From IMG/VR virus record IMGVR_UViG_3300010883_000001, positions 81,182 to 145,181 of that record: DNA of 64,000 nucleotides; one strand, given 5' to 3'. This DNA is from a virus. The notes below the pieces were generated by a model. It searched no databases. It saw only the letters and a program-made list of their open reading frames with translations, and was not told the origin of the DNA. Shown here one piece after another: positions 1 through 40,115 of this stretch. A program made the translations under genes and the position numbers. Each line of letters starts with the position of its first letter. The stretch's first letter is position 1.

Positions 1-335
1 TATCTGATATGGTTGATGGATTGATTTTAGCTATGGGATCTGAGTATTTTGGGCCGATTAATTTAGGGAACCCAAATGAGATTACTGTTTCCAAGTTAAC
101 AAATATAGTATTAGAAAAATGTAATGCACGAAATGCTATTAATTATTACCCATTACCTCAGGACGATCCATGCATCAGGAGACCCAACATAAATAAAGCT
201 AAGTGGTTATTGGGGTGGGTACCCAAAGTTAGTCTAGATGAAGGTCTAGATAGGACGATACAATACTTTAGAGGTCTTTTACGTGTAGAACCTCAAGAAC
301 CATCATATAATTTAAAAATTGGTTATGAAAAATGA
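1..335 (+). CDS. UDP-glucuronate decarboxylase (UDP-xylose synthase)-like NAD-dependent epimerase/dehydratase, C-terminal part (5' end outside window)
   Basis: GPINLGNPNEITV...PLPQDDP..RRPNINKAKWLLGW.PKVSLDEGLDRTIQYF is the typical UXS-family C-terminus; the frame is open to the window edge. Confidence 0.8.
   Translation, partial: SDMVDGLILAMGSEYFGPINLGNPNEITVSKLTNIVLEKCNARNAINYYPLPQDDPCIRRPNINKAKWLLGWVPKVSLDEGLDRTIQYFRGLLRVEPQEPSYNLKIGYEK
283..311 (+). promoter_or_regulatory. Putative promoter GTGTAG-N17-TATAAT upstream of dnaE
   Basis: Matches a motif repeated at 8 other gene starts with the same 17-nt spacer. Confidence 0.6.
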
Positions 336-3300
336 AAAAAACACCCTCAAGATTCGTAGGTCTTCATGCACATTCTGGATTTTCTACATTTGATGGATTA
401 GGATACCCTCAAGAACATATTGATTATGTAAAATCAAATGGAATGGACTGTTGGGCACTTACTGACCATGGTCACATGAATGGTTTTGCACATGCTTATT
501 TACATGCTGAAAAATTAAAAAAGCTTGGTGAGAATTTTAAATTTATTCCCGGGTGTGAAATGTATGTTCATCCGGATTTAGATGTATGGAGTCTAGACTA
601 CAAGCTAGCCCGGGCGGCAAAGCGAGGTGATCATGAGTCGATCACAAAACTTAGACAGCAAAGGGAGTCCATAGTAACCCCTATTCTTGCAGTAACCGAT
701 CGCGATGATGAGATTATAGATGTTGATATAAATGAAGGAGGTATGACTGTAGAGAATGAGGAGGAGACTAAGTCTGCAAAATTTTATGATCCCGTTAAAC
801 GCCGGCATCATTTAGTTGTACTACCTAGAACTAGTGAGGGTTTAAAACGTTTATTTTCATTGGTCTCCAAAGGTTATCTTGAGGGATTTTATAGATTTCC
901 GCGTGTAGATTATAAGATGTTAAAAGAGGCCGCTAAAGGTGGTCATTTAATGCTTAGTACGGCATGCCTAGGAGGCCCCGTCGCATATGAAGTATTCAGG
1001 CATTTACAAGAAGTTTCATTTAATAATCTTAATGCTTCTCTTTTAGATGATAGATCATTAATGGAGAAGACAATCCTTGGTGTTGGAAATGCATATGGAT
1101 CACTGTGTGACGCAGTAGGGCGTGAGAACGTTATGCTTGAGTTACAGTTCAATAAACTCCCAGCTCAACATTTGGTGAATAGAGCTATACTTGAGTATTC
1201 TAGAAGAAACAATTTATCAGATCAATTAATAGTAACTTGCGACTCGCACTATGCAAATCCAGAACATTGGAAAGAGAGAGAATTATATAAGAAGTTAGGA
1301 TGGTTAAATTATCGTGATTATGATCCTTCTTCGTTACCACAAAGTCGCGACGATTTAGAGTGTGAATTATATCCGAAAAACGAAACACAGGTCTGGGATT
1401 CATATACAAATACATCTTCTGGGTATGATTTTTATAATGATGAAGAGATATGTAGCGCTATTGAGAGAACGCATGATATAGCACACGAAATGATAGGCGA
1501 TATCACAGCCGATAAAAAAATGAAGCTGCCGTCATATATAGTACCTCAAGGCACTGATGAAAACACGGCACTTCTAGAAGCTTGTAAAAAAGGATTAATA
1601 GAGAAGGGCTTACATGCTAACAATGAATATATAGACCGCTTAAAGCTAGAGCTCTCTGTAATACGCAGTAAGGATTTTTCTAGATATTTTTTGACGATGA
1701 AGTCAATTCTTGATATTGCAAGAGAACGCATGTTGATAGGACCGGGTCGAGGATCCGCAGCTGGTAGTCTGGTTGCATATGTACTTGGAATAACAAACGT
1801 TGATCCTATAGAATATGGATTATTGTTTGAAAGATTTTTATCTGTCCATCGTGAGGGCGCACCAGACATTGATACTGACGTAGGCGATAGGGATCTTCTG
1901 ATTGATCTACTCAAGGCAAATTTTGGTGATCAGAATGTTGTTCCTATTTCAAATTATAACACTTTTAAATTGAAATCATTAGTAAAAGATATATCACGTT
2001 TTTATGGTATACCCTTTGACGAAGTAAATAAGGCACTGGCACCGGTTGAGAATGACGTAAAAAAAGTAGTCTTTACAAAGGGTACCGACAAAAACCTTTT
2101 CGTGTTATTGTATGAAGATGCCATTGCACACTCGGCATCATTTCGAAGTTTTATTGAAAAGTATCCTGAGGTAGCTGAACCAATCGAAATTTTATTTAAG
2201 CAAAATAAGTCCTTGGGTCGACATGCTGGCGGAGTAATAATCAGTGAAAATATTCCGGAGCAGATGCCCTTGATACTCGCAAGGGGTGAGCTACAGACCC
2301 CTTGGGTCGAAGGGATGCATTATAAACATCTGGAAGAGTTTGGGTGGATTAAATTTGATCTTCTTGGATTAGAAACCCTACGAATAATCCAACGTTGTAT
2401 AGAGCTAGTTTTGAAGAGGCATGAGGGAAATGAGAACCCGACTTTTGTTGATGTGAAGAAATGGTTTGACCAAAACATGGATCCGAAAGTCATAGATTTT
2501 AATGATGAAGAAGTGTTTCGAAACATATATCATCAAGGAAAATGGGCTGGAATATTTCAGGCTACGCAACGAGGCGCACAGGCATTTTTTAAGAAAGGAA
2601 AGCCTTTGAGTATTATTGATGTTGCTACGCTTACATCAATTTATCGCCCAGGTCCGTTAAGTGCTAATGTGCATAAGATATATTTGGGATCAAAGGACAA
2701 TCCAGAAGATATAGATTATCAACATGATCTTATTAAACAGGTTCTGGAACCGACATATGGTGCGATAATCTTTCAAGAGCAAGTTATGGAGTTATGCAAC
2801 GTTGTAGCCGGTTTCCCTCAGGAAGACTGTGATAAGGTTCGTAGAACAATCATGAAGAGATCTGCGTCTAAGGCAGATGCTATGAAAGCCGAGGCTGAAG
2901 CTTTAAAGAACAGATTTGTTGAGGGTGCTGTCACAAATGGCGTGGCACAGGATGTTGCTAGCGAATTATATGAGAAAATCTTATTTTTCTCCGGATATGG
3001 TTTTAATAAATCTCATGCCGTATCTTACGCAGTTGATTCTTACTATTGCGCATGGTTGATGCACTACTATGAGGAGGAATGGCTGTGTGCTTATCTTGAG
3101 GCTATGTCAAGTACTCCGGATAAGTTGGCAAAAGCATCTAGCGAGATTAAAAAGCTGGGATATAAGACGGTACCTCTAGACATAAATTATGCTGAAAAGA
3201 CCTGGACAATATTAGACGGGAAGAAATTTATGCCATCATTCTTATCATGCAAAGGTATAGGACTAGCCGCAATCGACGAGATTATGAAAAATAGACCGTA

Positions 3301-3931
3301 TAGCTCAGTTGATGATTTACTATGGGATGAATCAGGTAAGTGGCGACATTCAAAGTTTAATAAGCGTGCGTTAGGCTCACTTATTCGTGTTTGTGCATTT
3401 GGGTCCATGGGCTTAGTTGGCGAAAGGAAGGCATTTTCTTCATATAAGCAGATGCACGAAATACTAATAGATAAAAACCAAGATATAAAAAAGTCAACAA
3501 GGAAAGATCCATGGAGAGGTAAAAAAGCAATGACTGAATTGCTGGTTGAATCAGATACTTCAAGCGAATGGACATCTTATGAGCTAGCAAAGAATAGTAT
3601 TGAGCTGTTGGGATCATTTAGTTCGAAATTACTAGTGGATGACGAGTTACAAAAAGAGCTACAAAAAAGAGGCATTCACACAATTGATGAATATCACTCA
3701 AAAGACCTATATTGGTTTATTGTAAAGAAGGCAATCCCAAAGTTGACAAAGAATAAAAAGCCGTATCTACTATTGACAATATCTGGTACTGAAGGATCGG
3801 AAAGTCGGATGTTCTACTGGGGATGGAATGGAAACACAGATATATCAGAGTTTTCAGTTTGTGTGGCAGAAATTGACAGGAGCGATTTTGGATTTTCAAC
3901 TAGATCCGGAAAGATAAAGGTAATTAGATAA
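332..3931 (+). CDS. dnaE: DNA polymerase III alpha subunit (family C)
   Basis: PHP motifs HAHS..STFDG, TDHG, DSHY; GPGRGSAAGSLVAY; LLFERFL; catalytic PDIDTD; RHAGGV; KFDLLGL; YGFNKSHA. Confidence 0.97.
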   Translation: MKKTPSRFVGLHAHSGFSTFDGLGYPQEHIDYVKSNGMDCWALTDHGHMNGFAHAYLHAEKLKKLGENFKFIPGCEMYVHPDLDVWSLDYKLARAAKRGDHESITKLRQQRESIVTPILAVTDRDDEIIDVDINEGGMTVENEEETKSAKFYDPVKRRHHLVVLPRTSEGLKRLFSLVSKGYLEGFYRFPRVDYKMLKEAAKGGHLMLSTACLGGPVAYEVFRHLQEVSFNNLNASLLDDRSLMEKTILGVGNAYGSLCDAVGRENVMLELQFNKLPAQHLVNRAILEYSRRNNLSDQLIVTCDSHYANPEHWKERELYKKLGWLNYRDYDPSSLPQSRDDLECELYPKNETQVWDSYTNTSSGYDFYNDEEICSAIERTHDIAHEMIGDITADKKMKLPSYIVPQGTDENTALLEACKKGLIEKGLHANNEYIDRLKLELSVIRSKDFSRYFLTMKSILDIARERMLIGPGRGSAAGSLVAYVLGITNVDPIEYGLLFERFLSVHREGAPDIDTDVGDRDLLIDLLKANFGDQNVVPISNYNTFKLKSLVKDISRFYGIPFDEVNKALAPVENDVKKVVFTKGTDKNLFVLLYEDAIAHSASFRSFIEKYPEVAEPIEILFKQNKSLGRHAGGVIISENIPEQMPLILARGELQTPWVEGMHYKHLEEFGWIKFDLLGLETLRIIQRCIELVLKRHEGNENPTFVDVKKWFDQNMDPKVIDFNDEEVFRNIYHQGKWAGIFQATQRGAQAFFKKGKPLSIIDVATLTSIYRPGPLSANVHKIYLGSKDNPEDIDYQHDLIKQVLEPTYGAIIFQEQVMELCNVVAGFPQEDCDKVRRTIMKRSASKADAMKAEAEALKNRFVEGAVTNGVAQDVASELYEKILFFSGYGFNKSHAVSYAVDSYYCAWLMHYYEEEWLCAYLEAMSSTPDKLAKASSEIKKLGYKTVPLDINYAEKTWTILDGKKFMPSFLSCKGIGLAAIDEIMKNRPYSSVDDLLWDESGKWRHSKFNKRALGSLIRVCAFGSMGLVGERKAFSSYKQMHEILIDKNQDIKKSTRKDPWRGKKAMTELLVESDTSSEWTSYELAKNSIELLGSFSSKLLVDDELQKELQKRGIHTIDEYHSKDLYWFIVKKAIPKLTKNKKPYLLLTISGTEGSESRMFYWGWNGNTDISEFSVCVAEIDRSDFGFSTRSGKIKVIR

Positions 3932-5019
3932 TGCGGGTCTTAGTAGTCGGAGGAGGTATATTTGGTACCACGATAGCATCAGAACTATCAGAGCATGGAA
4001 ATGATGTAACATTAATTGAAAAAGAAAATACCTTGATGACGGCAGCCAGCAGGGTAAATCATAATCGTGTTCATTTTGGCTATCACTATCCTCGTAGTCC
4101 AGAGACGGCAAGACAATGTCTAGACAGCATTCCCAGTTTTTTAATGCATTATGGTGATTCTGTAGTATCGGATTTCCCTAACTATTATACGATTGCTAAT
4201 GAAGGTAGCTTCGTAACCCCGGAACAGTTTATTGATTTTTGTAAAGAGGTTAAAATTGATTTCTACGAACAATATCCACCTAAGCATCTTCTTAGAAGAG
4301 ACAAGCTAGCAGCTAGCTTTAGGGTAAGAGAGCCTATTTTTAGTACCAGTCGATTAGCACAGCTAGTTAACGATCGATTAGATCGAGCAGGTGTGAACGT
4401 TCTTGTAAGGACACAAATTACTAAGGCTAAGAAAAATCCTGGAGGTGGATACTCTGTAATGATAAATGGTGCTAGGTGTATATTTGATAAGGTTATTAAT
4501 GCAACATACGCCGGCCTGAATACTGTAAATAAGGTGTTTAATGTCCGGCCTCATGAACTACGGTTTGAGGAGACAGTAGTACCAGTATTCAAGTTCAGTC
4601 ACACACCTGTTGGGCTGACTATAATGGATGGTCCCTATTGTACTATAATGCCTCATGGAAATATTTCGGAAGAGTTTTTACTTTGGCATGTTGATGGCGG
4701 AGTTTTATCTCATGCTACTGACATTAAAAATATTCGTAGGGTTGTGTCATCTGATGAAGAGATCGCGGCTCGTATAATTGAGATGTCTGCTGAGTTTATG
4801 CCTTTTATGGAGGGCGTGGAATTTCTTTCATTGATGAAAACAGTAAAGACTGTCTATGAGAATAAGTATGATGCAAGAATGTCTGAGGTTCATACGTACG
4901 ACGACAGTCCGGACTTTATCTCAGTATTATCTGGGAAGATAATGTGTGCACCTCAGATTTCATATCAGGTTCGAGAATTAGTTAGGGGTAAGAAGTATCA
5001 CAGGAGTATTTTGGTATGA
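3931..5019 (+). CDS. FAD-dependent oxidoreductase (DAO/L2HGDH-like)
   Basis: N-terminal VVGGGIFG dinucleotide-binding motif; ASRVNHNRVHFGYHYPRS. Confidence 0.85.
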   Translation: MRVLVVGGGIFGTTIASELSEHGNDVTLIEKENTLMTAASRVNHNRVHFGYHYPRSPETARQCLDSIPSFLMHYGDSVVSDFPNYYTIANEGSFVTPEQFIDFCKEVKIDFYEQYPPKHLLRRDKLAASFRVREPIFSTSRLAQLVNDRLDRAGVNVLVRTQITKAKKNPGGGYSVMINGARCIFDKVINATYAGLNTVNKVFNVRPHELRFEETVVPVFKFSHTPVGLTIMDGPYCTIMPHGNISEEFLLWHVDGGVLSHATDIKNIRRVVSSDEEIAARIIEMSAEFMPFMEGVEFLSLMKTVKTVYENKYDARMSEVHTYDDSPDFISVLSGKIMCAPQISYQVRELVRGKKYHRSILV

Positions 5020-5681
5020 TAAAGAATATACTAATTTTTGGTGCATCTGGTTATGTGGCACGTCATTTTAGCGAAAAATATTTTAATCATTATAATATTA
5101 TTCACTTTGCTAGAGAAGATTTTGATTTTTTGAGACCTGATTTTGAAAAATTGGTTGAAAATTTAATCGAGAAACTTCAACATTTACGGCAACCACGACA
5201 TGGCGGCGTAGATGGGATTGTGTTTTTGCAAGGAATTAACCCCTCATTTGGAGTAAGTGACATAGATGATAATCAGTTTCATGATATGTTAAGTATAAAT
5301 TTATCAGTACCACTTCAGGTTATTAGGCAAATTAAAGACTGGATTAATAAAAGTGCATCAATCACATTTATATCATCCATTGCAAGAAAGAAAGGGAGTT
5401 ATGATCCGAGCTATGCTTCTGCAAAAGCGGGGCTGGTTGGACTTCAGCAGGCTTTGTCAAATCATTTTTCTGATATTCGTTTTAATACGATATCACTCGG
5501 GTTGGTTGGGGGATCCCCTGTTCACGAGGGAATGACAGATGATTTTGCCCTTAAACATCTAGATGCCATGGGAGGAAAATTGGTAAAAGTTGATGATGTT
5601 TGTAAAGCTATAGGTTTTTTGATAGAATGTGATAGTATTTCTCGCGCGATTATTCCAATTGATAGAGGGTTTAAGTTATGA
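5016..5681 (+). CDS. Short-chain dehydrogenase/reductase (SDR)
   Basis: GASGYVA Rossmann motif; ISS...YASAKAG catalytic S/YxxxK. Confidence 0.85.
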   Translation: MIKNILIFGASGYVARHFSEKYFNHYNIIHFAREDFDFLRPDFEKLVENLIEKLQHLRQPRHGGVDGIVFLQGINPSFGVSDIDDNQFHDMLSINLSVPLQVIRQIKDWINKSASITFISSIARKKGSYDPSYASAKAGLVGLQQALSNHFSDIRFNTISLGLVGGSPVHEGMTDDFALKHLDAMGGKLVKVDDVCKAIGFLIECDSISRAIIPIDRGFKL

Positions 5682-6208
5682 GTGATCAAAAGATCATAAT
5701 CTTTGATGGTCCGGACGGGTGTGGAAAGACAAATATCGCAGCTGCGTTGTCAAGACTTCTAGATATTCCCGTTTTTAAGAATGAATTTGAATGGGATCAT
5801 TTTAATCTTGGCTCAAGTAATGATTATTTTATTAAAGCAATAGAATATCAGCACCCCTACGTGTTATCTTTCTTAAAGCAAACCAGACATTCAGCAATAT
5901 TTGATAGGGCTCATCCTTCTGAGTTTGCATACTCCCGCGTATTTGAGAGAACAACAAGTTGGAGGGCTTTAAAGATGTGTGATGATATGAGTGCTGAAAT
6001 GTCTGTAAAAATAATTATTCCCTATCGCACAAATTATGAAAATGTCGATGATGAGTTTGGGGTAAATCCCATAAAGCTAGTAGAGATTGAATCCGAGTAT
6101 AGAGCATTTGCTAAGTGGACCAAGTGTGATGTAATGTGGTTAAATGTTGATGATGAAGATTTAGATAGGGAAATTAAGGAAATCGTTGATTTTTTGGAGA
6201 TGGTATAA
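5678..6208 (+). CDS. P-loop (deoxy)nucleoside monophosphate kinase, thymidylate-kinase-like
   Basis: IIFDGPDGCGKT Walker A; FDRAHPSEFAY (DR motif). Confidence 0.85.
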   Translation: MSDQKIIIFDGPDGCGKTNIAAALSRLLDIPVFKNEFEWDHFNLGSSNDYFIKAIEYQHPYVLSFLKQTRHSAIFDRAHPSEFAYSRVFERTTSWRALKMCDDMSAEMSVKIIIPYRTNYENVDDEFGVNPIKLVEIESEYRAFAKWTKCDVMWLNVDDEDLDREIKEIVDFLEMV

Positions 6209-7239
6209 TGAGGGTACTGTTTAGTTATTGGGGATTTTGTGAGAGCTTTGAAGACTGTAACGAACCGAATACACCTGATGGATCTAGATTCACTAGACCG
6301 ATGTTTGTTAATGCACTTACGATTGCAGGGCACCAGGTAACATCTCTACAAAAAAGAAGAGAGAAAAATGAGTACCCCGGGATTACATATGATCCAGTTG
6401 GTTTACCTGATGGTGATATTTTATTTATTGAGTGGCGCTGGAAGACGTGGAAAAATTTTGGTGATACTAAATTTGAGAATGATTATGACAGGCAAATCGA
6501 ATTATTGCAACACTATCATGGAGAGGTACCCGTCGTAATATGGGACTGTGATATGAAATTGACGTCTGAGGATGAGAATAGGTGGCCTGAGGCTATCATT
6601 GCTGACCCTACAATGGACCCTAAGCAACTTACCAGAAAGAGGGCTAGGTTACCATTTTCATCAGATCTGAAATTTTTAGTTGAGCCGTATGAAGACCCGG
6701 TTAGGTATGGGTATATCGGGAACAATTACGAGCGAGATGAGATGTTTGAAAAATATTATAATTGTCCCGCAAAATCTCTTAGGCCGGAAGGAATTCAAAC
6801 ATCAGTTTTTGGAAACTGGCTTCTGCGATCTCCGGAGAGAATGTCTCCTGAACATGTAACGAAGAAATTTCGTAATATTGCGTTTATTGATAGGGTTGGG
6901 TTTACTGAATCCATGCAGCAGTTGAGAAAATTCATATGTACTACACATATCACAAAGCCAGAGTATGCAAAGAGGGGATTTGTCTCGCCTAGGTATCTTG
7001 AGAATATAGCAACATGTACTCCTTCATTGGTACCTTGTGAGTTTATGATGAATAATATTTTAGGAAATAATTGGATGGCATCAAGCTCAGGCAGTGTTGT
7101 CAAGGCTGTAAGATATTTGAGATGTCTTTTACCAGAAGATCGTGCTGCGGTTGTTGATGAGCAAAGGTATAATTTGAGAAATAACCTGAATGTTGATGTT
7201 AAGCAAACAGTTGAGTTTTTAGAGGGTTTGATAAAATGA
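6208..7239 (+). CDS. Putative GT-B glycosyltransferase (DNA/nucleobase glycosyltransferase-like)
   Basis: SYWGF..TPDG.R, ILFIEWRW, VIWD.D, YIGNNYER, GFVSPRYLE resemble glycosyltransferases found beside TS homologues; gene context agrees. Confidence 0.65.
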   Translation: MRVLFSYWGFCESFEDCNEPNTPDGSRFTRPMFVNALTIAGHQVTSLQKRREKNEYPGITYDPVGLPDGDILFIEWRWKTWKNFGDTKFENDYDRQIELLQHYHGEVPVVIWDCDMKLTSEDENRWPEAIIADPTMDPKQLTRKRARLPFSSDLKFLVEPYEDPVRYGYIGNNYERDEMFEKYYNCPAKSLRPEGIQTSVFGNWLLRSPERMSPEHVTKKFRNIAFIDRVGFTESMQQLRKFICTTHITKPEYAKRGFVSPRYLENIATCTPSLVPCEFMMNNILGNNWMASSSGSVVKAVRYLRCLLPEDRAAVVDEQRYNLRNNLNVDVKQTVEFLEGLIK

Positions 7240-8231
7240 AAAAATCAGTATTAATTACTGGAGGTTGTGGCTTTATAGGGGGCAATCTTGTAAAAGCACT
7301 ATACAATAAGGGATGGGTTGTTGATGTTGTTGATCACAGTGTAGAGATAGATCCGGATATATTTTCCCATGATGGAAAAAATGTGACGAGAATTTGTCCG
7401 GCTGCGTTAATGCCAGCGTTACAAAAAAGGGATAGAGAAGACAAAATATTAGTAATAACGTCTGATTTTACTGACGAAAATATTTTGAAGAAAATTTCTA
7501 ATAAAAAATATGATATAGTTTTTCATATGGCCGCTGAACCCCGAGTGGGGTTTAGTGTTAAAGATCCTGTCTTTACAACTGAAGAGAACTTGTTTAAGAC
7601 AGTTGTGTTGTTTAAGGCCTGTGCTGATGCTGGTACAAAGGTTGTATTTTCCTCCTCATCAGCAGTTTACGGAAATGCTGATCAACTACCCACCAGCGAA
7701 GATTGCAAAAAGAAACCAGCATCCCCATATGCATTGCAGAAGTTACATGCGGAGGATTACGCAAGGTTATTTAGCGACTTGTATGACTTAGATGTTGTAT
7801 GTCTGAGGTATTTTAACGTATTTGGCCCCGGGGCTCTAGGCAGTTCTCCTTACGCAACGGCAGTTGCTGCATGGTGCCAGGCAATATATGATGGAAACAC
7901 ATTACGAAGTGATGGTGACGGAGAGCAAACGCGGGATCTTGTTTATGTGGATGATATTGTAAGAATTAATATTGCCCTAGGGAAAAGTGCTAAAAACTTT
8001 AAAGGCGATTGTTATAATGTTTGTACCGGTAAGTCATATAGCAATAATTACGTATTATCTAGGTTTAGGGAAAAATTTTCTAATTTAGAGATCGTTTCTG
8101 CTCCTGCTCGTATTGGAGACGTTAAACATACTTTAGGTGATACCAGTAAGGCAACAAATGATCTTGGATTTGAGGTTGTACATGATTTCGATGATGCTTT
8201 AAAGGCAACATGGGCATGGTGGGGATTTTAG
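7236..8231 (+). CDS. NAD-dependent nucleotide-sugar epimerase/dehydratase (GalE-like extended SDR)
   Basis: TGGCGFIG, FHMAA, SSSSAVYG, PYALQK, LRYFNVFGP, GDGEQTRDLVYV. Confidence 0.92.
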   Translation: MKKSVLITGGCGFIGGNLVKALYNKGWVVDVVDHSVEIDPDIFSHDGKNVTRICPAALMPALQKRDREDKILVITSDFTDENILKKISNKKYDIVFHMAAEPRVGFSVKDPVFTTEENLFKTVVLFKACADAGTKVVFSSSSAVYGNADQLPTSEDCKKKPASPYALQKLHAEDYARLFSDLYDLDVVCLRYFNVFGPGALGSSPYATAVAAWCQAIYDGNTLRSDGDGEQTRDLVYVDDIVRINIALGKSAKNFKGDCYNVCTGKSYSNNYVLSRFREKFSNLEIVSAPARIGDVKHTLGDTSKATNDLGFEVVHDFDDALKATWAWWGF

Positions 8232-8241
8232 GGGAAAAAAA

Positions 8242-9231
8242 TTGCATATTGTCTCTCATTCGTTTAACGACTGCTATAATCAGTTGGCGAAATATTTGTT
8301 AACAAGCGGGGAATATGATGTATCCCCTAGAGGCCAGAGGGTTAGAGAATCTTTATGCGTAAGTTTTAAGATTGAAAACCCTAGGGATAGACTAATCTAT
8401 AATCCGGCGAGAAAATTTTCTTTCACATATGTTATAGCGGAGATGCTTTGGTATATTTCTGGAAATAATAAAACGTCGTGGATATCTCATTATTCTAAAT
8501 TTTGGAATAAAATATCTGATGATGGTAAGACGGCCAACTCTGCATATGGTGCTAGGATATTTGAGAAAAATGAAAGAATCGCAGGATCCCAATTTATTCA
8601 GTGGGATTTTATAAAGGAGGAGTTAAGAAAAGATCCGGATTCTAGAAGGGCAATAATTCATATCCGCGTTCCGGAGGATTCTATAAAGGCAAAGCTTGAT
8701 GTCCCCTGTACAATATCAATACAATACTTTATAAGATCTGAAAAATTACATTGCATAGTCAATATGAGATCTTCTGACTTAATTTTAGGGATAAGCTACG
8801 ATATTCCTGCGTTCACATTTATGCAGGAGATGATGGCAAATGAATTGGGGGTTGATGTAGGCTCTTATATGCATGTCAGTAATTCATTGCATGTATACGA
8901 GAGACATTTTGATATGCTAGAAAAGATAGCATCAACAGAAAATATTAATAAGTCTTATTCATTAAGTTCAGGAGCTAGAAAACTTAAATTACCACAGGGT
9001 GATCTACCCATATATAGTTTAATGCAGTTTGAGGACGCTATGCGAAAAACCACCCATAATAAAACCGCATTAGATTTATTAGATTCATCGATTTGTTTAT
9101 TCGATGATTATTGGAATGATTGGCTACGAGCGCTAGCAGCGCATAGGGTTCTTAAAAATGGTGATAAACATCTTCACGATAATATATTATATAGGTGTGA
9201 TCGCTTGAGGGGGTGTTATGAGAGATCCTGA
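8242..9231 (+). CDS. Thymidylate synthase homologue, probably dCMP hydroxymethylase/dCMP-modifying enzyme
   Basis: DPDSRRA, PCT (catalytic Cys), NMRSSDLILGISYD with Asp at the ThyA Asn177 position, SLHVYERH; TTG start. Confidence 0.8.
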   Translation: MHIVSHSFNDCYNQLAKYLLTSGEYDVSPRGQRVRESLCVSFKIENPRDRLIYNPARKFSFTYVIAEMLWYISGNNKTSWISHYSKFWNKISDDGKTANSAYGARIFEKNERIAGSQFIQWDFIKEELRKDPDSRRAIIHIRVPEDSIKAKLDVPCTISIQYFIRSEKLHCIVNMRSSDLILGISYDIPAFTFMQEMMANELGVDVGSYMHVSNSLHVYERHFDMLEKIASTENINKSYSLSSGARKLKLPQGDLPIYSLMQFEDAMRKTTHNKTALDLLDSSICLFDDYWNDWLRALAAHRVLKNGDKHLHDNILYRCDRLRGCYERS

Positions 9232-9811
9232 GTTTATAATTTTTACTGGACCAATGTTCGGTTCAAAAACTACTAGAATGCTAGCATGTGTAGACAGGTA
9301 TAGATACCAGCATAAACTTATTGCAGTATTTAAACCAAAGATAGATGATAGATACGAGACTGATAAAATTAAAACACATTCAGGTTTGTCTATACAGGCG
9401 CACTGCGTCGAGTCAGGTTACGAGATTGCTGATATTATAACTAAAATTGAGCTAGCGTCACTTAAGAGAGTTGACGTGATTGCCGTTGATGAAGCTTTTA
9501 TGATTGAAGGATGCTCGTCGACGCTAATTCAATTGTTTAAAACAGGATACACAATCGTAATTGCGTCGATACAATTATCGGCCACCGGCGAGCCATTTAA
9601 TGAAATTAAAGATATTCTGCCATGGGGGACAAGAGTTGAGGTTTGTCCAGCAGTATGTTCTAGGACTGGCGAAGATGCATATTATACATTTAGAAAAGTT
9701 GAATGTTTGGATAGCATTATGATTGGAGGTTCTGATATGTATGAGGCCAGGTGTTGGTCAAGTCATCCTGGACTGAATTCCTTGGAGAAATTAAATGATA
9801 GAGCCATCTAG
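9218..9811 (+). CDS. tdk: Thymidine kinase
   Basis: TGPMFGSKT, KPKIDDRY, IAVDEAF, IGGSDMYEARC. Confidence 0.9.
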   Translation: MRDPEFIIFTGPMFGSKTTRMLACVDRYRYQHKLIAVFKPKIDDRYETDKIKTHSGLSIQAHCVESGYEIADIITKIELASLKRVDVIAVDEAFMIEGCSSTLIQLFKTGYTIVIASIQLSATGEPFNEIKDILPWGTRVEVCPAVCSRTGEDAYYTFRKVECLDSIMIGGSDMYEARCWSSHPGLNSLEKLNDRAI

Positions 9812-10649
9812 CGTTGATTGCGTAATATATCATGCTGACTGTACTGACGGCTTTGGGGCAGCCTACGCAGCATGGAAACTTTTAGGAAACAAGGCAGATT
9901 ATTATGCGTGTAAGCATGGCTCAGTCCCACCAGATGTATCGGGTAAAAGAGTTGTAATTCTAGATTTTTCTTTTAATAATGAGATTACAAAAGCAATGAT
10001 TGACACAGCGGATGGTTTGATAGTCATTGATCATCATAAGTCGGCCATGGTAGAATTGCATGATATTACGGATGCTATATTCAATATGAGTAAATCTGGA
10101 GCCATGCTAGCATGGGAATTTTTTCATCCGGGAAAAGAGCCACCAAAGTTTATTTCGTACATAGAGGATCGTGATCTGTGGAAGTGGGAGTTACCATATT
10201 CAAAAGAGTTCGCTGCAGCTTTTGATATGGTTCCTTTCGAGTTTGAAGAGTTTGAGAAGTTTGAAGATGACTCTGTTTTTGATGATGCTGTAAAACGAGG
10301 AAGTTACATACTGGCGTATTCAAAAACGGTAGTTAAAAAAGTCTCTGAGAAGGCATCACCAAGAAGATTAAACGGAAAGAGCATATTGGTCGTAAATGCT
10401 TCACATTGGATGTCGGAAATAGGCGCCAGGCTTTCTCCCGATTGTGATGTTGCAATGATCTGGTATTATGATCATATTGATAAAATGATAAAGGTTAGCT
10501 TAAGATCTTTTCATGACACCGTTGATGTCTCCGAGGTCGCAAAGAAATTTGGCGGAGGTGGGCATAAAAAGGCTGCTGGTTTTATACTTCCTGGAGATGC
10601 TGTCGTGGATGATATTTTTGACGATGAGGTTAAGAATGAAGAAGTTTAG
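9795..10649 (+). CDS. DHH/DHHA1 family phosphoesterase
   Basis: YHADCTDG, LDFS, IDHH, EDRDLW, SLRS, FGGGGHKKAAGF. Confidence 0.9.
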   Translation: MIEPSSVDCVIYHADCTDGFGAAYAAWKLLGNKADYYACKHGSVPPDVSGKRVVILDFSFNNEITKAMIDTADGLIVIDHHKSAMVELHDITDAIFNMSKSGAMLAWEFFHPGKEPPKFISYIEDRDLWKWELPYSKEFAAAFDMVPFEFEEFEKFEDDSVFDDAVKRGSYILAYSKTVVKKVSEKASPRRLNGKSILVVNASHWMSEIGARLSPDCDVAMIWYYDHIDKMIKVSLRSFHDTVDVSEVAKKFGGGGHKKAAGFILPGDAVVDDIFDDEVKNEEV

Positions 10650-11058
10650 GCCTGGATGGGATGCGATTTGGCTTAAGTTTGCGCATCTAATATCTGAGAG
10701 AAGTTATGATGATCGGTACAAGGTAGGTGCCATTGTAGTTTCGATCGACAATACACAGGTTCTTGCAGTGGGATATAATGGAAATTATTCTGGTGGTCCA
10801 AATGAAGCAGACTCAGCTGAACCAGGCAAATCAGGATTTATTCATGCTGAGATTAATGCATTACTTAAGTGCGACTATAATTATCACAAAGTTAAAAAAC
10901 TATATGTTACACTATCACCGTGCATGATGTGTGCTAAGGCCATTATTAATGCCGGAATCTCAGAGGTGATTTATGATGATGAGTATAGAGATACGGCCGG
11001 AATTCAGCTTATGAAGGATACAGGAATTGTCGTTAGGAGAGTAAACAATTATTCTTGA
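10636..11058 (+). CDS. dCMP deaminase
   Basis: VGAIVV, GYNG, HAEINA, TLSPCMMC; start placed at ATG 10636 overlapping the upstream gene end. Confidence 0.9.
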   Translation: MKKFRPGWDAIWLKFAHLISERSYDDRYKVGAIVVSIDNTQVLAVGYNGNYSGGPNEADSAEPGKSGFIHAEINALLKCDYNYHKVKKLYVTLSPCMMCAKAIINAGISEVIYDDEYRDTAGIQLMKDTGIVVRRVNNYS

Positions 11059-11161: not shown

Positions 11162-13465
11162 ATGAGTAGTATAAAAAACGGTTTATTTAGAGAGTTTGAT
11201 TTAGAGTATATCATCGAGACTAGCCTAAAGTTACGTAGGCTAAGTGATAGCTCAATTATTCTCGAGAACGCGCTAGCCAACAACGATATTAGTGCATTGT
11301 TAATGGAGGAGCTAGAAAGTAAAGACATAGAAAAGCTGAGAAAAACTACTAAGGAAACAAAAAAGGCAGTTGAGCAGATACAGGCTGCCATAGGTGATAA
11401 ATTACCTAGCCTTAAAGATCCACTAGATAGTCTACACGATGCAATAACTGATTCCCTAAAGTTCGTATCAGAGCTTGATTTAGAAAATCCTGAAGGTATG
11501 ATGGCAAATATTGGGAGATTTTTTGGATCTAAGGTTGATATTGCATCTTCATTTCAAGCAGTTTTACAAATACAGACAAAAACAAAACAGATAGCAGATT
11601 CTTTAGAGCAAGCAATTCCTTTAATATTGAAAAATATTGAAGACCTTATTGATGAGACTCAGCAGGATGTTCCTTTAAGTGAGTTAGCTGGAACAGGTGA
11701 TATTCCGGATGCTAATAAAATTAAAGGAGGTGTTCAAAAGGCGTTTAAGGCCGGCGGCGGCGGGTTCTTGGGGAAACTTACCGGGTTTTTGAGAAAAGCA
11801 GCAGGTAAATCAAAGCTCTTAGCCGGTGTAGTTGATCCGGATTTCGATGAGGTCGCTGATGATTTCATGTTACTTTCAATTATACAAATGAAAGAGTTAG
11901 AAACGGCCTTAGGTACAGCTGCAGATGTTGAGATGTTAGATAAGGCTACAACTGAAGATCTTGCCAAGGCAGAGCCTGAAGATTACCAAGCCGTAGCCGC
12001 TGATCAAAGCGGATCCGGCGCAGCACCTGAAAATCCTGATAAGGCTGAGCCTAGACCTGATTTTACGCTTGAAGACTTAATGGCACTATTACAAAAAATG
12101 AACCCGCCAGCAGCCAAGGAGCTGGAGGCGATGCCTGAAGAAGAGCAGGAGGCCGTCGCGGCAGATGACGTAGAGGAGATAGTTGCGGGTGAGGTCAGCC
12201 CGGAGGATGCTGCAGAAGAGGTGTCCGAAGAGGCTGAAGAAGCTGCAGATGCACCAAAGTGGTCAGAGATAGCTAATTCGTTCTTAGATGATCTTAAGTC
12301 TAAAGGATTATCCGACAAAGGCGAAGAGTTTATTAAGAGTTATATGACCGACATTATAAACCAACCTGATTTTGAAGAGGCCGTAGGTGCGTCCCTTAAG
12401 TTGAAAGAGTCATTATTTATAGGCAGTATTTCTTCATTTTTATTTGAAGAAATAGAATATAAAGATTTAGAAAAGGCATCAAAGGACTCAGCTGAATTTT
12501 CATCAGATGAGCAGGCTGCAGCTGTTACTTCACATCTAGCCACCATGATGTCTGATGCCGGCGTAGCAGTTGCCGGCGACCCTGGTGTAGAATTAACTGA
12601 TGATATCATTGCAGGAATTGGCATTGCCGAAGAAGAGATTCCAAAACCAGAAGTAGGCGAAATTTATAATTTCACTACAGGGAAAAACAAAAAGACTTTT
12701 GTAAAGATCAACAGCGAACCAGATGGAGAATGGGTAAGTGCATCTACAGCTGATGGGAAAGGCTCTTTCAAAAAAGCAAAATTTAATGTAAAGATTACGA
12801 GACTTGGCGAAAAGACAACCGCTGAAGAAGCGGGGATTAGTGAAAAAGAAGGAGGGGAAGACATGCCAGAAGATCCAGAAGTTGAAAGCTCACCAGAAGA
12901 AGAGATTAAAGCGGCGCCTCAGGATGTACCTCCGGGCGTAGCAATTGGCACGGCATTAGAAGATTGGGAACAGTCACTATCTAAGAGTAGCCAAGAGACC
13001 ATTAACAGAAAAAATAGGTTTCAAGCATTAAAAGACGTTATTAACTCCAGTTTAGAGGGAGCAGCACAACGTACTGCCAAGCATGTTAAGACGGCTATTA
13101 AAAAGTGGCGTGCTGAACATGAGGAGACGCTAATAACATCAAAGAGATTTGCGAAGAAGAATTTTGATACACTATCAGAATTAATTCCCCAGCTGGTCGC
13201 AGTGATAATGGCAAAAAAGACAGAATCTGCAGGAAATCTAATGACTATAGGAAGCATCCATAGAACAGTTTATAAACATCTGAATAAGAGATTTTATGGA
13301 ACGAGATATTTATTATCGGAGATATTGGTTTCTAACGATGCCAGATCTAGCAGTATCAAATCTAATGATGTTAGTAGTACTCGACCTACCGGTAATTTTG
13401 ATCTTACAAATTCAGATAGTGATGATTCTACCATGGCTAGGTGGAGAGAATTAGCCGGATTATGA
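11162..13465 (+). CDS. Large acidic hypothetical protein, possible virion/internal head protein
   Basis: 767-aa E/D/A-rich ORF ending MARWRELAGL; preceded by TATAAATA at 11131-11138. Confidence 0.5.
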   Translation: MSSIKNGLFREFDLEYIIETSLKLRRLSDSSIILENALANNDISALLMEELESKDIEKLRKTTKETKKAVEQIQAAIGDKLPSLKDPLDSLHDAITDSLKFVSELDLENPEGMMANIGRFFGSKVDIASSFQAVLQIQTKTKQIADSLEQAIPLILKNIEDLIDETQQDVPLSELAGTGDIPDANKIKGGVQKAFKAGGGGFLGKLTGFLRKAAGKSKLLAGVVDPDFDEVADDFMLLSIIQMKELETALGTAADVEMLDKATTEDLAKAEPEDYQAVAADQSGSGAAPENPDKAEPRPDFTLEDLMALLQKMNPPAAKELEAMPEEEQEAVAADDVEEIVAGEVSPEDAAEEVSEEAEEAADAPKWSEIANSFLDDLKSKGLSDKGEEFIKSYMTDIINQPDFEEAVGASLKLKESLFIGSISSFLFEEIEYKDLEKASKDSAEFSSDEQAAAVTSHLATMMSDAGVAVAGDPGVELTDDIIAGIGIAEEEIPKPEVGEIYNFTTGKNKKTFVKINSEPDGEWVSASTADGKGSFKKAKFNVKITRLGEKTTAEEAGISEKEGGEDMPEDPEVESSPEEEIKAAPQDVPPGVAIGTALEDWEQSLSKSSQETINRKNRFQALKDVINSSLEGAAQRTAKHVKTAIKKWRAEHEETLITSKRFAKKNFDTLSELIPQLVAVIMAKKTESAGNLMTIGSIHRTVYKHLNKRFYGTRYLLSEILVSNDARSSSIKSNDVSSTRPTGNFDLTNSDSDDSTMARWRELAGL

Positions 13466-13475
13466 GGTATAATAA

Positions 13476-13817
13476 ATGAAAATCTCAGAGATAGATCTTA
13501 CTAGAAAAAACAAGGTAATTCTGCGTAAAGGATTAAAGATCGTACATTCACCTACCGGGTTGGAATATACTGTACTTGATGTATTTAAAGATTCATCAGG
13601 AAAAGTAAAAATTAAGCTAGCTCCCCCAGAACAACCTAGGGTAGAGCCGATCACATCTACTACGGTGATGCAAGAAGTTGAGCTAGTAAATAATACCCAA
13701 GACGATCAGACAATACACACCACGCCTGAAGATACTGCCGAAGAAGTCATAGATCTGGAGGACGAGGACGTCCTTGTTTTAGATCAAGGAGAATTGAAAG
13801 ATTATGAGGTTAGATAA
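13476..13817 (+). CDS. Hypothetical protein
   Basis: ORF with GAGG RBS, coupled to the next gene. Confidence 0.6.
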   Translation: MKISEIDLTRKNKVILRKGLKIVHSPTGLEYTVLDVFKDSSGKVKIKLAPPEQPRVEPITSTTVMQEVELVNNTQDDQTIHTTPEDTAEEVIDLEDEDVLVLDQGELKDYEVR

Positions 13818-14509
13818 TGTCTGATGTTATAAAAAGAGAAGTTGTCGCAGCGATAAGGGCCGTTATTAATAAAGACGATGACGTAAGTCAAGTCTCTGAG
13901 TCATATGTAGTTCAACCTAGGAAATATGCTTTATCAACAGAGAAGATTGGCGAAAAAACAAAGGGTATGATGATAAAGAGATTTGAGGAAGCTGTTGCAA
14001 ACCTAAACACAGTTTCAGCGAAGCTTGACACAGCTAATAAAGAAGCTGCTGGAGAGTTTCACTCTGATTTTCGCTCATTAAAATTTGATGAGTCATCGTT
14101 ACTATCTAGATCTTTTTTGACAGCTATGACCCTGGAGAACATAAGCGACTTAGATTCTAAAATAACGATGGATTCTCTTCCTTTTTTACGTTTAGATAGG
14201 GATTTTCAATCTTTTGACAATTGGCAAAGAGATTTTATTGCGTGTGGGAAATGTATAACGGATGGGTTTGTTGCATGCGGATTAAACGTTTATTTAAAGA
14301 AATACACAAACATAATCTGCGCCGGCCCAACATTCTCAGTTCCAGTTGGGTTTATGCCTATACTGGTTTTGGCAATTGATCCAATAGTAATATCAAGAAA
14401 TTTTTCTGCAGATAATTCGCAGTTTATTGCATCAATGATGAAAGAGATAGATTGGGATAAGGTCTCTGATAGAATTAAGAAGTCAGAAAAGTTTTTAAAG
14501 ATTTTGTGA
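13817..14509 (+). CDS. Degenerate Fe/Mn superoxide dismutase-fold protein
   Basis: LDRDFQSFDNWQRDF, PILVLAID, MKEIDWDKVSDR follow the SOD C-terminal domain, but DxWEHAY is absent. Confidence 0.55.
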   Translation: MSDVIKREVVAAIRAVINKDDDVSQVSESYVVQPRKYALSTEKIGEKTKGMMIKRFEEAVANLNTVSAKLDTANKEAAGEFHSDFRSLKFDESSLLSRSFLTAMTLENISDLDSKITMDSLPFLRLDRDFQSFDNWQRDFIACGKCITDGFVACGLNVYLKKYTNIICAGPTFSVPVGFMPILVLAIDPIVISRNFSADNSQFIASMMKEIDWDKVSDRIKKSEKFLKIL

Positions 14510-38893: not shown

Positions 38894-39385
38894 ATGACTA
38901 AGAAAGAAGATGGGACGGTTGTTGGTTTTACGTGTGGATCTTTTGATTTGATGCATGCAGGGCATGTTCTTATGTTCGAAGAGTGTAAAAAATATTGTGA
39001 TAAGCTCGTAGTTGGTGTACAATCAGATCCATCAGCTGACAGGCCTGAGTCAAAGAATACACCCATCCAGACTTTTGTCGAGAGAATTTTGCTAGTAAAG
39101 TCAGTGAGATGGATTGATGACGTTATACTTTATCATACCGAGGAAGATCTTTATAGAATATTAGAGGAATTGAAACCCAGCGTTAGGATAATTGGCGAAG
39201 ACTGGAGGGATAAAGAGTATACAGGTCATAATTTACCTATTGATGTTATTTTTAATTCTAGATCCCATACATACTCAACTAGCGAATTGAGGGAAAGGGT
39301 TTATGATAGAGAAAAAAAGAAAAAAGATAAAGAGAAAAATGTAGGTCTATCTCATGGTACCGGTTTACCTACAGGAAGCGATTAG
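38894..39385 (+). CDS. Cytidylyltransferase (TagD/glycerol-3-phosphate CT-like)
   Basis: CGSFDLMHAGH, VGVQSD, RSH.YSTSELR. Confidence 0.88.
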   Translation: MTKKEDGTVVGFTCGSFDLMHAGHVLMFEECKKYCDKLVVGVQSDPSADRPESKNTPIQTFVERILLVKSVRWIDDVILYHTEEDLYRILEELKPSVRIIGEDWRDKEYTGHNLPIDVIFNSRSHTYSTSELRERVYDREKKKKDKEKNVGLSHGTGLPTGSD

Positions 39386-39389
39386 TTTT

Positions 39390-40115
39390 ATGAAAATAGA
39401 TGATGCCGCCGAAGTGAACCGGCAATACTTATATCACGATAATGATGGATTTGTTGAATATGTCCAACACATGGGTGATGATGCCACAATCGTTAATGCA
39501 GCCAGGGTTTCTTTTGGTAAACAGGTGGCTGAGTTATCTAATAAAGACAAAAAATTGATTAAATACCTTGTAGCGCATAAGCATACGTCTACTTTAGAAC
39601 ATAATGTTTTAACAATGCGGTTTAGGGTACCCTTGTTTGTTGCGCGGCAACATATGAGGCATCGTACTTGGAGTTTTAATGAAATTTCTCGTAGATATAC
39701 AAGCATTGATATGTCAATGTACGAGCCAGACATGTTCAGGGTTCAACATTCTCAGAATAGACAGGCATCCGAAGATGATGGGTTGATTAATCCCTTATGC
39801 GTGTCGACAACAGCATATGATATTGGGATATCCGGCTCAGCGTCAAGTCTAGTAAAGAGACACCACAAATCATCAATGTTACTGTATGAGTCTTTAATGC
39901 AAGCCGGTGTTTGTAGGGAACAGGCCCGCGGAGTTCTACCTCAAAATATGTATACAGAATATTTGGGAACAGTCAATCTAAATAATCTGATCAAATTTAT
40001 ACATTTGCGTATCCATGAGGGTGCACAGTGGGAGATAAGAAGGGTTGCTGAGTCTTGTTACCATATAGCTAGCTCTTTGTGGCCGGATGTTATGAAATGT
40101 GCGGTGAAAAATTAA
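39390..40115 (+). CDS. thyX: Flavin-dependent thymidylate synthase
   Basis: AARVS, H.S.LEH, RQHMRHRTWSFNEISRRY, EQARGVLP, AQWEIR. Confidence 0.95.
   Translation: MKIDDAAEVNRQYLYHDNDGFVEYVQHMGDDATIVNAARVSFGKQVAELSNKDKKLIKYLVAHKHTSTLEHNVLTMRFRVPLFVARQHMRHRTWSFNEISRRYTSIDMSMYEPDMFRVQHSQNRQASEDDGLINPLCVSTTAYDIGISGSASSLVKRHHKSSMLLYESLMQAGVCREQARGVLPQNMYTEYLGTVNLNNLIKFIHLRIHEGAQWEIRRVAESCYHIASSLWPDVMKCAVKN

Follow-up and report, generated by a model that had tools for sequence, protein, structure and literature searches.

A candidate pathway for glycosylated 5-hydroxymethylcytosine in the DNA of an uncultured marine phage

The window analysed here, the terminal 64 kb of one viral contig from IMG/VR (IMGVR_UViG_3300010883_000001, designated L001; 145,181 bp, CheckV completeness ~52%), opens with a run of genes in which a thymidylate synthase (TS) homologue, a small nucleotide kinase and a glycosyltransferase (GT) stand among enzymes of sugar-nucleotide metabolism. 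It is probable that this phage replaces deoxycytidine (dC) in its DNA with 5-hydroxymethylcytosine (5hmC) and glycosylates the 5hmC, in a system of the T4 and RB69 kind, the likeliest product being pentosyl-5hmC. Glycosylated cytosines are one of the main means by which phages evade restriction enzymes and CRISPR nucleases. Those worked out so far are limited to glucosyl- and gentiobiosyl-5hmC in the T-even phages, joined in 2025-26 by 5-hydroxycytosine with arabinosyl or hexosyl groups. If true, pentosyl-5hmC made by way of UDP-glucuronate (UDP-GlcA) would be a new combination of base and sugar, with a new donor pathway.

The run comprises eleven genes (Table 1), all on the plus strand and unbroken from the start of the window to position 11058. 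The near gapless, one-strand organisation reported in a preliminary description of this DNA is borne out by the list of open reading frames (ORFs): successive junctions overlap by 4, 1, 4, 4, 1 and 4 nt, followed by a 10-nt gap and by overlaps of 14 and 17 nt. Its family calls for the DnaE polymerase, FAD oxidoreductase, short-chain dehydrogenase/reductase (SDR), kinase, epimerase, TS homologue, thymidine kinase, DHH phosphoesterase and dCMP deaminase were likewise confirmed with Pfam, PHROGs and NCBIfam. Comparison of the block with 50,697 phage records by megablast gave no match, and there is thus no cultured relative to compare it with.

Cytosine hydroxymethylation and the glycosyltransferase

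The TS homologue (329 aa; Pfam Thymidylat_synt, 118 bits) begins with a TTG codon preceded by an AGGGG Shine-Dalgarno sequence. Its closest solved relative is the CMP hydroxymethylase MilA, matched over the full length with 144 bits, compared with 82 for TS and 61 for T4 gp42. The protein was aligned with E. coli ThyA, T4 gp42, RB69 gp48, the SP-10 dUMP hydroxymethylase and phage G gp319, taken from annotated records, and its residues are numbered here as in E. coli ThyA. It retains the catalytic nucleophile C146, as do all 31 homologues from the clade, and carries L143D (in the motif KLDVPCT), H147T, D169, N177D (ISYDIP, aligned with LPFNIA), R126, Arg127 and S167, with Arg126 and Ser167 located in DPDSRRA and MRSSD, respectively. 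The substitution N177D is associated with cytosine specificity and L143D/E with a hydroxymethyl product (Lee et al., NAR 2026, PMC13326640; the rule for position 177 also in PMC5175136). The alignment separates the enzyme classes, since RB69 gp48 has Asn at position 169, where the phage protein has Asp, and the SP-10 enzyme has Asn at position 177, where T4 gp42 and RB69 gp48 have Asp. Among the positions examined, the protein departs from T4 gp42 at C168 alone, with Ser where gp42 has Asn, and 31/31 homologues from related loci have identical residues at every informative position.

The contig also encodes the flavin-dependent thymidylate synthase ThyX (PF02511, 161 bits, E = 1.3e-48; phrog_85, E = 2e-58), which makes the ThyA homologue dispensable for dTMP synthesis and leaves it free for another role. 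Because of this and the residue pattern, the TS homologue is predicted to be a folate-dependent dCMP hydroxymethylase (5hm-dCMP synthase), and the earlier proposal of a C5-modified cytosine is supported by its cytosine- and hydroxymethyl-specific residues and by the presence of ThyX. Other assignments were considered and rejected. Function as a TS is at odds with the hydroxymethylase-type residues; the dUMP hydroxymethylases of the SP-10/SPO1-like phages, to which tblastn matches were obtained, keep N177, where the phage protein has Asp; and a CMP enzyme is excluded by the Arg and Ser found at the positions of MilA Lys133 and Ala176, as the MilA residues favour ribonucleotides and Arg and Ser favour dCMP (Zhao et al., PMC5175136).

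It is very improbable that the TS homologue is instead a flavin-dependent 5-hydroxy-dCMP synthase of the RB69 gp48/DLP3 gp80 type, with the sugar ether-linked directly to C5. The gene trio and the MilA-like closest structure do match RB69 gp48 and DLP3 gp80, and the only pentosyl-cytosine known so far is pentosylated 5-hydroxycytosine (5hoC). However, D169N is diagnostic for the 5-hydroxy-dCMP synthases, being present in every one tested (PMC13326640), and Asp169 is retained both here and in all 31 homologues.

The kinase has a weak match to phrog_761 (thymidylate kinase, TMK; E = 4e-9) and faint similarity to the RB69 gp45 kinase (BLASTP E = 4e-5) and to YorR (PDB 2axp). It is the sole TMK-like gene detected on the contig, and tblastn gave no match to it in the phage records searched. 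The GT that follows (343 aa) has no match in Pfam, PHROG or NCBIfam and none by tblastn in the 50,697 phage records; its 197 homologue clusters are all metagenomic or viral. An AlphaFold model built from 32 of the homologue clusters (pLDDT 93, pTM 0.89) shows the two-Rossmann-domain GT-B fold by both VIA-align and Foldseek, so that the predicted fold upholds the earlier GT-B call, on which the sequence families are silent. VIA-align Z-scores were 21.3 for PimA, 20.4 for BshA, 20.2 for the T4 β-glucosyltransferase (BGT), 19.5 for the T4 α-glucosyltransferase (AGT) and 15.3 for the GT of phage HY126, and Foldseek searches of PDB and BFVD returned GT4 enzymes, BGT, AGT and the GTs of phage SP-15. 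The comparison with T4 BGT is therefore positive as regards the fold, but GT4 enzymes score equally, and with the top scores tied the fold gives no preference to DNA over other acceptors. By sequence, the GT is a separate GT-B family, apart from T4 BGT and RB69 gp47. In a weak alignment with BGT, the invariant residues Y253, R262 and E265 of the GT family fall on BGT Y261, R269 and E272, which are UDP-glucose contacts, and we give the correspondence as a lead.

Gene context is more specific about the acceptor. Contigs with GT homologues and 34 IMG/VR loci were compared with the window proteins by tblastn and blastp. The kinase is present in 33/34 of these loci. Of the 31 untruncated ones, 30 have the hydroxymethylase-type TS homologue; kinase, GT and TS homologue occur together in the same proportion of them (30/31), and also in Tara contigs. 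The three genes are ordered differently in different lineages, and this shuffling favours a functional link over simple co-inheritance. In the window they lie side by side at 5678-9231, with a single epimerase gene inserted, and the neighbourhood comparison suggested in the preliminary description shows this core to be kept across the phage clade. We propose that the GT is a putative 5hmC-DNA glycosyltransferase, its acceptor being assigned from this gene context.

We think it rather improbable that the sugar genes serve host or virion glycans, with the GT acting elsewhere than on DNA, and with 5hmC left bare or the TS homologue serving only nucleotide metabolism. Such a role would agree with a GT fold as near to the GT4 enzymes for lipids, lipopolysaccharide and small molecules as to DNA GTs, with the occurrence of homologues of the FAD enzyme and SDR in O-antigen and capsule loci, and with the glycan gene sets of other phages, such as the contig L057. 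But across the shuffled gene orders, all members of the GT family that were found have the kinase and a TS homologue of the hydroxymethylase type as neighbours; the GT has no predicted membrane segment and no carrier-lipid genes nearby, as judged from ORF content only; and the arrangement resembles that of validated DNA-glycosylation clusters.

Sugar-nucleotide genes and the identity of the sugar

The first gene of the run extends beyond the window, beginning 687 nt before it, so that the window holds the last 110 of its 340 residues. The complete protein is, by sequence, a true UDP-xylose synthase (UDP-glucuronate decarboxylase, UXS): a phmmer comparison with human UXS1 (PDB 4gll/2b69) gave E = 3.5e-94 and 318 bits over residues 2-325, with the next family at 125 bits, and the Pfam families are Epimerase/GDP_Man_Dehyd. 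Its score against the NCBIfam bifunctional UDP-4-keto-pentose/UDP-xylose synthase (91.7 bits) is under the cut-off of 294. The UDP-GlcA decarboxylase assignment made earlier from the partial gene was right. The presence of UXS points to a pentose in this phage, supplied as UDP-xylose or, after 4-epimerisation, as UDP-L-arabinose.

The epimerase is an extended SDR of the epimerase type (Pfam Epimerase, 162 bits) and has UDP-GlcNAc and UDP-hexose 4-epimerases as its best PDB matches. It is not a GalE equivalog, given that its score for TIGR01179 (galE; 146.8 bits) is below the cut-off of 262. The catalytic triad S124/Y149/K153 is kept, N179 and the UDP-binding arginines R231 and R292 are conserved, and the gatekeeper position Y299 is Thr in all orthologues, in loci with and without UXS alike. 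Orthologues of the epimerase (39-53% identity) occur in 26/34 of the IMG/VR loci, and those of UXS in 5/34, plus the window, L010/L011 and L055. The epimerase is thus common in relatives that have no UXS, in one of them beside a UDP-galactopyranose mutase (GLF), and may be a UDP-hexose 4-epimerase; the base sugar of the clade may accordingly be a hexose. By itself, the enzyme would also allow UDP-Gal or UDP-GalNAc.

A 5hmC bearing a hexose (galactose, GalNAc or galactofuranose), made through the 4-epimerase from host UDP-Glc or UDP-GlcNAc, is on balance unlikely for this phage. UXS and the FAD/SDR pair would in that case either provide a second, outer sugar, with its transferase encoded in the part of the genome that the contig lacks, or serve another glycan. 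The prevalence of the epimerase relative to UXS is in keeping with a hexose, as are the combination of epimerase and mutase without UXS in L036, where UDP-Gal is needed as the intermediate, the space that the gatekeeper Thr leaves for hexoses and N-acetylhexosamines, the incompleteness of the contig, and the galactose that is the base-proximal sugar in phage RL38J1. However, UXS lacks another obvious role in a phage, the L055 operon includes UXS directly and no epimerase (UXS-FAD-SDR-kinase-GT-TS), and one GT was found on the contig: searches for a second (PF00534, PF00535 and the A1 profile) or for a further TMK (PF02223) returned none on this 52% complete contig. We continue to favour pentosyl-5hmC. 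The candidates for the sugar are xylose, L-arabinose or a tailored pentose as against galactose, and the route from UXS to arabinose may be one among several. The preliminary description had proposed a C5-modified cytosine carrying a pentose or otherwise unusual sugar made by the UDP-GlcA route; the TS residues, the GT-B fold, UXS and the conserved core support this in part, and the pentose is not secured, given how common the epimerase is in relatives without UXS.

The FAD enzyme scores 75.4 bits for Pfam DAO (cut-off 27.9), and its AlphaFold2 model (pLDDT 92.5) has the two-domain DAO/GlpD fold, with VIA-align Z-scores of 32.9 for glycine oxidase and 31.3 for GlpD (glycerol-3-phosphate dehydrogenase). 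Kinship with NGTO, the phage N-alpha-glycinylthymidine lyase, was rejected (Z = 20.6, compared with ~31-33 for generic DAO enzymes), as was identity with UDP-galactopyranose mutase, since no GLF match was obtained and true GLF is found in the relatives L031 and L036. Homologues of the FAD enzyme (41-46% identity) adjoin a partner SDR in polysaccharide loci of Bacteroidota, and orthologues of the SDR (37-59% identity) always adjoin the FAD gene (L010, L055, L056, L057, L017 and L019). Homologues of the pair with 37-46% identity lie in O-antigen or capsule loci of Mucilaginibacter and Sphingobacteriia (L017:8001-10278, L019:3759-5508), and an unrelated marine phage contig has the order Ugd-extended SDR-FAD-SDR (L057:7224-10724). 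A described function for the pair was not found in the literature. The nearest cellular homologues of the two genes are the one hint at a host, and they would suggest Bacteroidota.

The gene orders of L055 and L057 tie the FAD/SDR pair to the branch derived from UDP-GlcA, and its presence in glycan loci and next to Ugd suggests a mobile two-gene glycan-tailoring cassette linked to that branch. By analogy, we propose that a sugar hydroxyl is oxidised and then reduced. DprE1/DprE2 is a flavin-oxidase/SDR-reductase pair that functions in sugar epimerisation. The likeness lies in a flavoenzyme and a small SDR standing side by side in glycan loci, and it would suggest a stereo-inverting reduction; DprE1 has a VAO/PCMH fold and acts on lipid-linked ribose, whereas the phage enzyme has a DAO fold, and no homology is claimed. 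The idea, already raised in the preliminary description, that the two enzymes tailor the sugar is in this light reasonable, with a glycan-locus cassette behind it.

The sugar genes around the trio vary from relative to relative. Gene order in L010 is as in the window; L055 has DnaE-UXS-FAD-SDR-kinase-GT-TS without an epimerase, and L056 has DnaE-FAD-SDR-kinase-GT-TS. The order in L031 is UXS-GLF-kinase-GT-epimerase-TS, and L036 has GLF and the epimerase without UXS. In both, GLF (226-256 bits; L031:8361-9455, L036:8890-9999) lies beside the kinase and GT, which implies furanose sugars (Galf or L-Araf) on the DNA of these phages. A second epimerase-like SDR is present in L007, L020 and others. 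The core is thus constant in the clade, while the route to the donor changes.

A wider and more speculative reading, which we put forward tentatively and as doubtful, is that the members of a large clade of uncultured marine DnaE phages, some of them jumbo phages, combine a fixed kinase-GT-hydroxymethylase core with swapped cassettes and so place different sugars on 5hmC. The cassettes would be of several types: epimerase only, epimerase with UDP-galactopyranose mutase, with UXS or with a second epimerase, and UXS with FAD/SDR. In the present phage, UXS, flavoenzyme and SDR would yield a UDP-pentose new to nucleic acids, such as xylose or arabinose epimerised at C2/C3 or otherwise tailored by redox chemistry, by a flavin/SDR sugar-epimerisation chemistry that is undescribed and shared with the surface polysaccharides of Bacteroidota. 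If true, cassette swapping across the clade would show how phages diversify the sugars on their DNA. Both the GT family, with ~200 clusters of which none is annotated, and the FAD/SDR pair may offer new enzymes for DNA glyco-engineering and glycan biochemistry. As a practical warning, some methods of library preparation and restriction may fail on the DNA of these phages, which are abundant in the sea.

Inserted metabolic genes were observed within the block in some relatives: GMP reductase/IMPDH-family, GH5 cellulase-family, PEP carboxykinase and glutamine synthetase genes (L031:13257-14291, L043:15236-16297, L050:11913-14135, L055:1-1364 and 3258-4289).

The proposed pathway and its relation to known systems

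In the pathway that we propose for pentosyl-5hmC, dCMP would come from the breakdown of host nucleic acids, with the DHH phosphoesterase releasing mononucleotides from oligonucleotides, and from hydrolysis of dCTP by a MazG-like enzyme encoded upstream, which would hold dCTP and/or dUTP low. The TS homologue would convert dCMP and methylene-tetrahydrofolate to 5-hydroxymethyl-dCMP, the TMK-like kinase would form 5hm-dCDP and host NDP kinase the triphosphate, and the phage DnaE would insert 5hm-dCTP into DNA instead of dC, while the dCMP deaminase, ThyX and thymidine kinase would supply dTTP. After replication, the GT-B enzyme would transfer a sugar from a UDP-sugar to the 5-hydroxymethyl group. 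For the donor, UXS would convert host UDP-glucuronate to UDP-xylose and the 4-epimerase UDP-xylose to UDP-L-arabinose (or UDP-Glc to UDP-Gal), and the FAD oxidase and SDR reductase would probably re-tailor the sugar, oxidising one of its hydroxyls and reducing it again. The end product would be xylosyl-, arabinosyl- or tailored-pentosyl-5hmC, shielding the DNA from restriction and CRISPR nucleases.

The MazG-like NTP pyrophosphohydrolase (129 aa, all-alpha; L001:18106-18495; phrog_12184) is encoded directly before UXS, in a position that is conserved. Gordonia phage proteins that carry the annotation dUTPase or dCTP pyrophosphatase share 39% identity with it, and a sequence search of PDB gave no match. 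It is a candidate for the dCTPase of the system.

Several points weigh against the proposed pathway. It is a prediction from sequence, fold and gene context, for a phage that is uncultured. The thymidylate-kinase match of the kinase is weak, fold searches with the GT score generic GT4 enzymes as highly as DNA GTs, and hhalign comparison of the GT family gave probabilities of 8.9% for T4 BGT and 0.2% for RB69 gp47, neither significant. An ordinary dUTPase is another possible identity of the MazG-like protein. No UDP-glucose dehydrogenase (PF03721) was found on the contig, which is 52% complete, and this leaves the host, or the half of the genome that the contig lacks, as the source of UDP-GlcA. 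The epimerase is kept in relatives that lack UXS, and its residues do not differ between loci with and without UXS.

The pathway resembles that of the T-even phages (T4 gp42, gp1 kinase, gp56 dCTPase, alpha- and beta-glucosyltransferases, cd, td and tk) in its pre-replicative synthesis of hm-dCMP, its kinase, NTP pyrophosphohydrolase, dCMP deaminase and thymidine kinase, and its post-replicative GT-B enzyme, as well as in the gp42 active-site signature of the TS homologue, complete at the positions compared save C168. It differs in that the TS homologue is of the long, MilA-like form, the kinase is TMK-like rather than gp1-like, dTMP is made by ThyX rather than Td, the polymerase belongs to family C and the GT to another sequence family. 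The phage would also make its own UDP-sugar, with UXS, epimerase and FAD/SDR, in contrast to the use of host UDP-glucose by T-even phages.

A contiguous TMK-like kinase, GT-B enzyme and MilA-like TS homologue, together with a phage-encoded supply of sugar nucleotides, are shared with RB69, DLP3, HY126 and RL38J1. Validated kinase-GT-TS clusters are RB69 gp45-48, DLP3 gp78-80 and RL38J1 gp214-216 (Lee et al., PMC13326640). As in this group, a pentose is likely, and UDP-galactopyranose mutase is found both in RL38J1 and in the relatives L031 and L036. The differences are that Asp169 is kept here, predicting hydroxymethylation as opposed to flavin-dependent hydroxylation, and that no similarity to RB69 gp46:47 can be detected in the GT sequence. 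Host and phage lineage are also unrelated, the present phage belonging to the uncultured marine DnaE phages. In RB69 and DLP3 the sugar is made from ribulose-5-phosphate by an arabinose-5-phosphate isomerase, a kinase/uridylyltransferase and a phosphatase (PMC13326640), whereas here UDP-GlcA would be used via UXS.

MilA and BcmA, the CMP hydroxymethylases of nucleoside antibiotics, include the closest solved relative of the TS homologue, the similarity extending to a C-terminal helical extension and to Asp at positions 143 and 177. The difference is again in Lys133/Ala176, for which the phage protein has the Arg/Ser of deoxynucleotide enzymes.

The combination of genes had been described earlier as one not recognised from any described system. 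This no longer holds for the trio, which underlies arabinosyl- and hexosyl-5hoC in RB69, DLP3 and RL38J1 (PMC13326640), and does hold for the UDP-GlcA route, which was not found published. The known pentosyl cytosines are on 5-hydroxycytosine, with arabinose derived from ribulose-5-phosphate (PMC13326640), and a search of ~8.4 million full texts did not turn up any modification of phage DNA with a UDP-glucuronate decarboxylase as the source of its sugar, only the RB69 2018 and Thanatos papers surfacing, both with other routes. The predicted novelty lies in the base-plus-sugar chemistry and the donor route; the T-even logic and the RB69/DLP3 organisation are already known.

As a separate observation, Bacillus phage G gp319, annotated as thymidylate synthase, has L143D, D169 and N177D and is encoded near an annotated alpha-glucosyltransferase, dCMP deaminase and DnaE (L015:1293-7029); phage G may also have glycosylated 5hmC.

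Polymerase, nucleotide-metabolism and neighbouring genes

The DnaE protein contains PHP, DNA_pol3_alpha, finger and HHH_6 domains (phrog_405, E = 1e-227) and is at most ~30% identical to any DnaE of a GenBank phage. Almost every related locus has it next to the modification genes. The preliminary description saw the pathway as built around DnaE; we see mere adjacency in a block for replication and nucleotide metabolism. Thymidine kinase and dCMP deaminase, like DnaE, are present in most related loci. In several relatives, DnaE is split into two ORFs by an insert ORF of 310-320 aa (L020:4569-9463, L043:524-5272, L047:1129-5975), which may be a homing endonuclease, intein or intron-like insertion.

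The remaining genes of the run are a thymidine kinase (Pfam TK, 114 bits; phrog_592), a DHH phosphoesterase with DHH and DHHA1 domains (phrog_4771, E = 8e-76), 67-81% identical in those relatives that have it, and the dCMP deaminase (dCMP_cyt_deam_1, 68.8 bits; phrog_174, E = 2e-44 with the 140-aa version). For the deaminase, 10636, which is Met42 of the long ORF, is a more probable start than 10513, as indicated by the translation and the lengths of the relatives; its overlap with the DHH gene is then 14 nt, and an equal 14-nt overlap is seen in L010.

Table 1. Features of the gene run and the ThyX gene (positions in the window)
Feature	Position	Strand	Basis or remark
UXS gene, 3' end (ORF open at 5' end)	3-335	+	Whole gene (340 aa) at L001:18495-19517
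DnaE-type (family C) DNA polymerase alpha subunit	332-3931	+	Pfam domains, phrog_405
DAO-family FAD oxidoreductase	3931-5019	+	Pfam DAO, AlphaFold2 model
Classical SDR	5016-5681	+	adh_short, adh_short_C2
Small P-loop nucleotide kinase, proposed 5-hydroxymethyl-dCMP kinase	5678-6208	+	phrog_761
GT-B glycosyltransferase, proposed DNA (5hmC) glycosyltransferase	6208-7239	+	Predicted fold
GalE/WbpP-like UDP-sugar 4-epimerase	7236-8231	+	Pfam Epimerase, residues
TS homologue with dCMP hydroxymethylase signature, TTG start	8242-9231	+	Thymidylat_synt, residues
Thymidine kinase (TK)	9218-9811	+	Pfam TK, phrog_592
DHH/DHHA1 phosphoesterase (NrnA/RecJ-core-like)	9795-10649	+	phrog_4771
dCMP deaminase, likely start 10636 (longest ORF 10513-11058)	10636-11058	+	dCMP_cyt_deam_1, phrog_174
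ThyX, flavin-dependent thymidylate synthase	39354-40115	+	PF02511, phrog_85

A gene for a Fpg/Nei-family DNA glycosylase (L001:17120-17905) lies a short way upstream of the modification block, at 1.3-2.1 kb from the start of the window; the best solved relative of the enzyme is the mimivirus Nei1 orthologue (3a42, 151 bits). It is conserved in this position (L007:2938-3738, L010:1740-2522, L055:1836-2639), and a small HhH-GPD glycosylase gene precedes it in relatives. In a phage that replaces cytosine, such an enzyme may remove oxidised or unwanted pyrimidines.

GC skew on the coding strand is strongly positive (~+0.15 to +0.25) over nearly the whole 64 kb and dips solely at 50-52 kb and 58-60 kb, where the genes are on the minus strand. 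The deaminase is followed by an ORF of 767 aa without a family match (11162-13465), and a large ORF is found there in relatives too. Next comes, at 13817-14509, the gene of a 230-aa protein that matches Sod_Fe_C weakly and is conserved in L007, L055 and L056.

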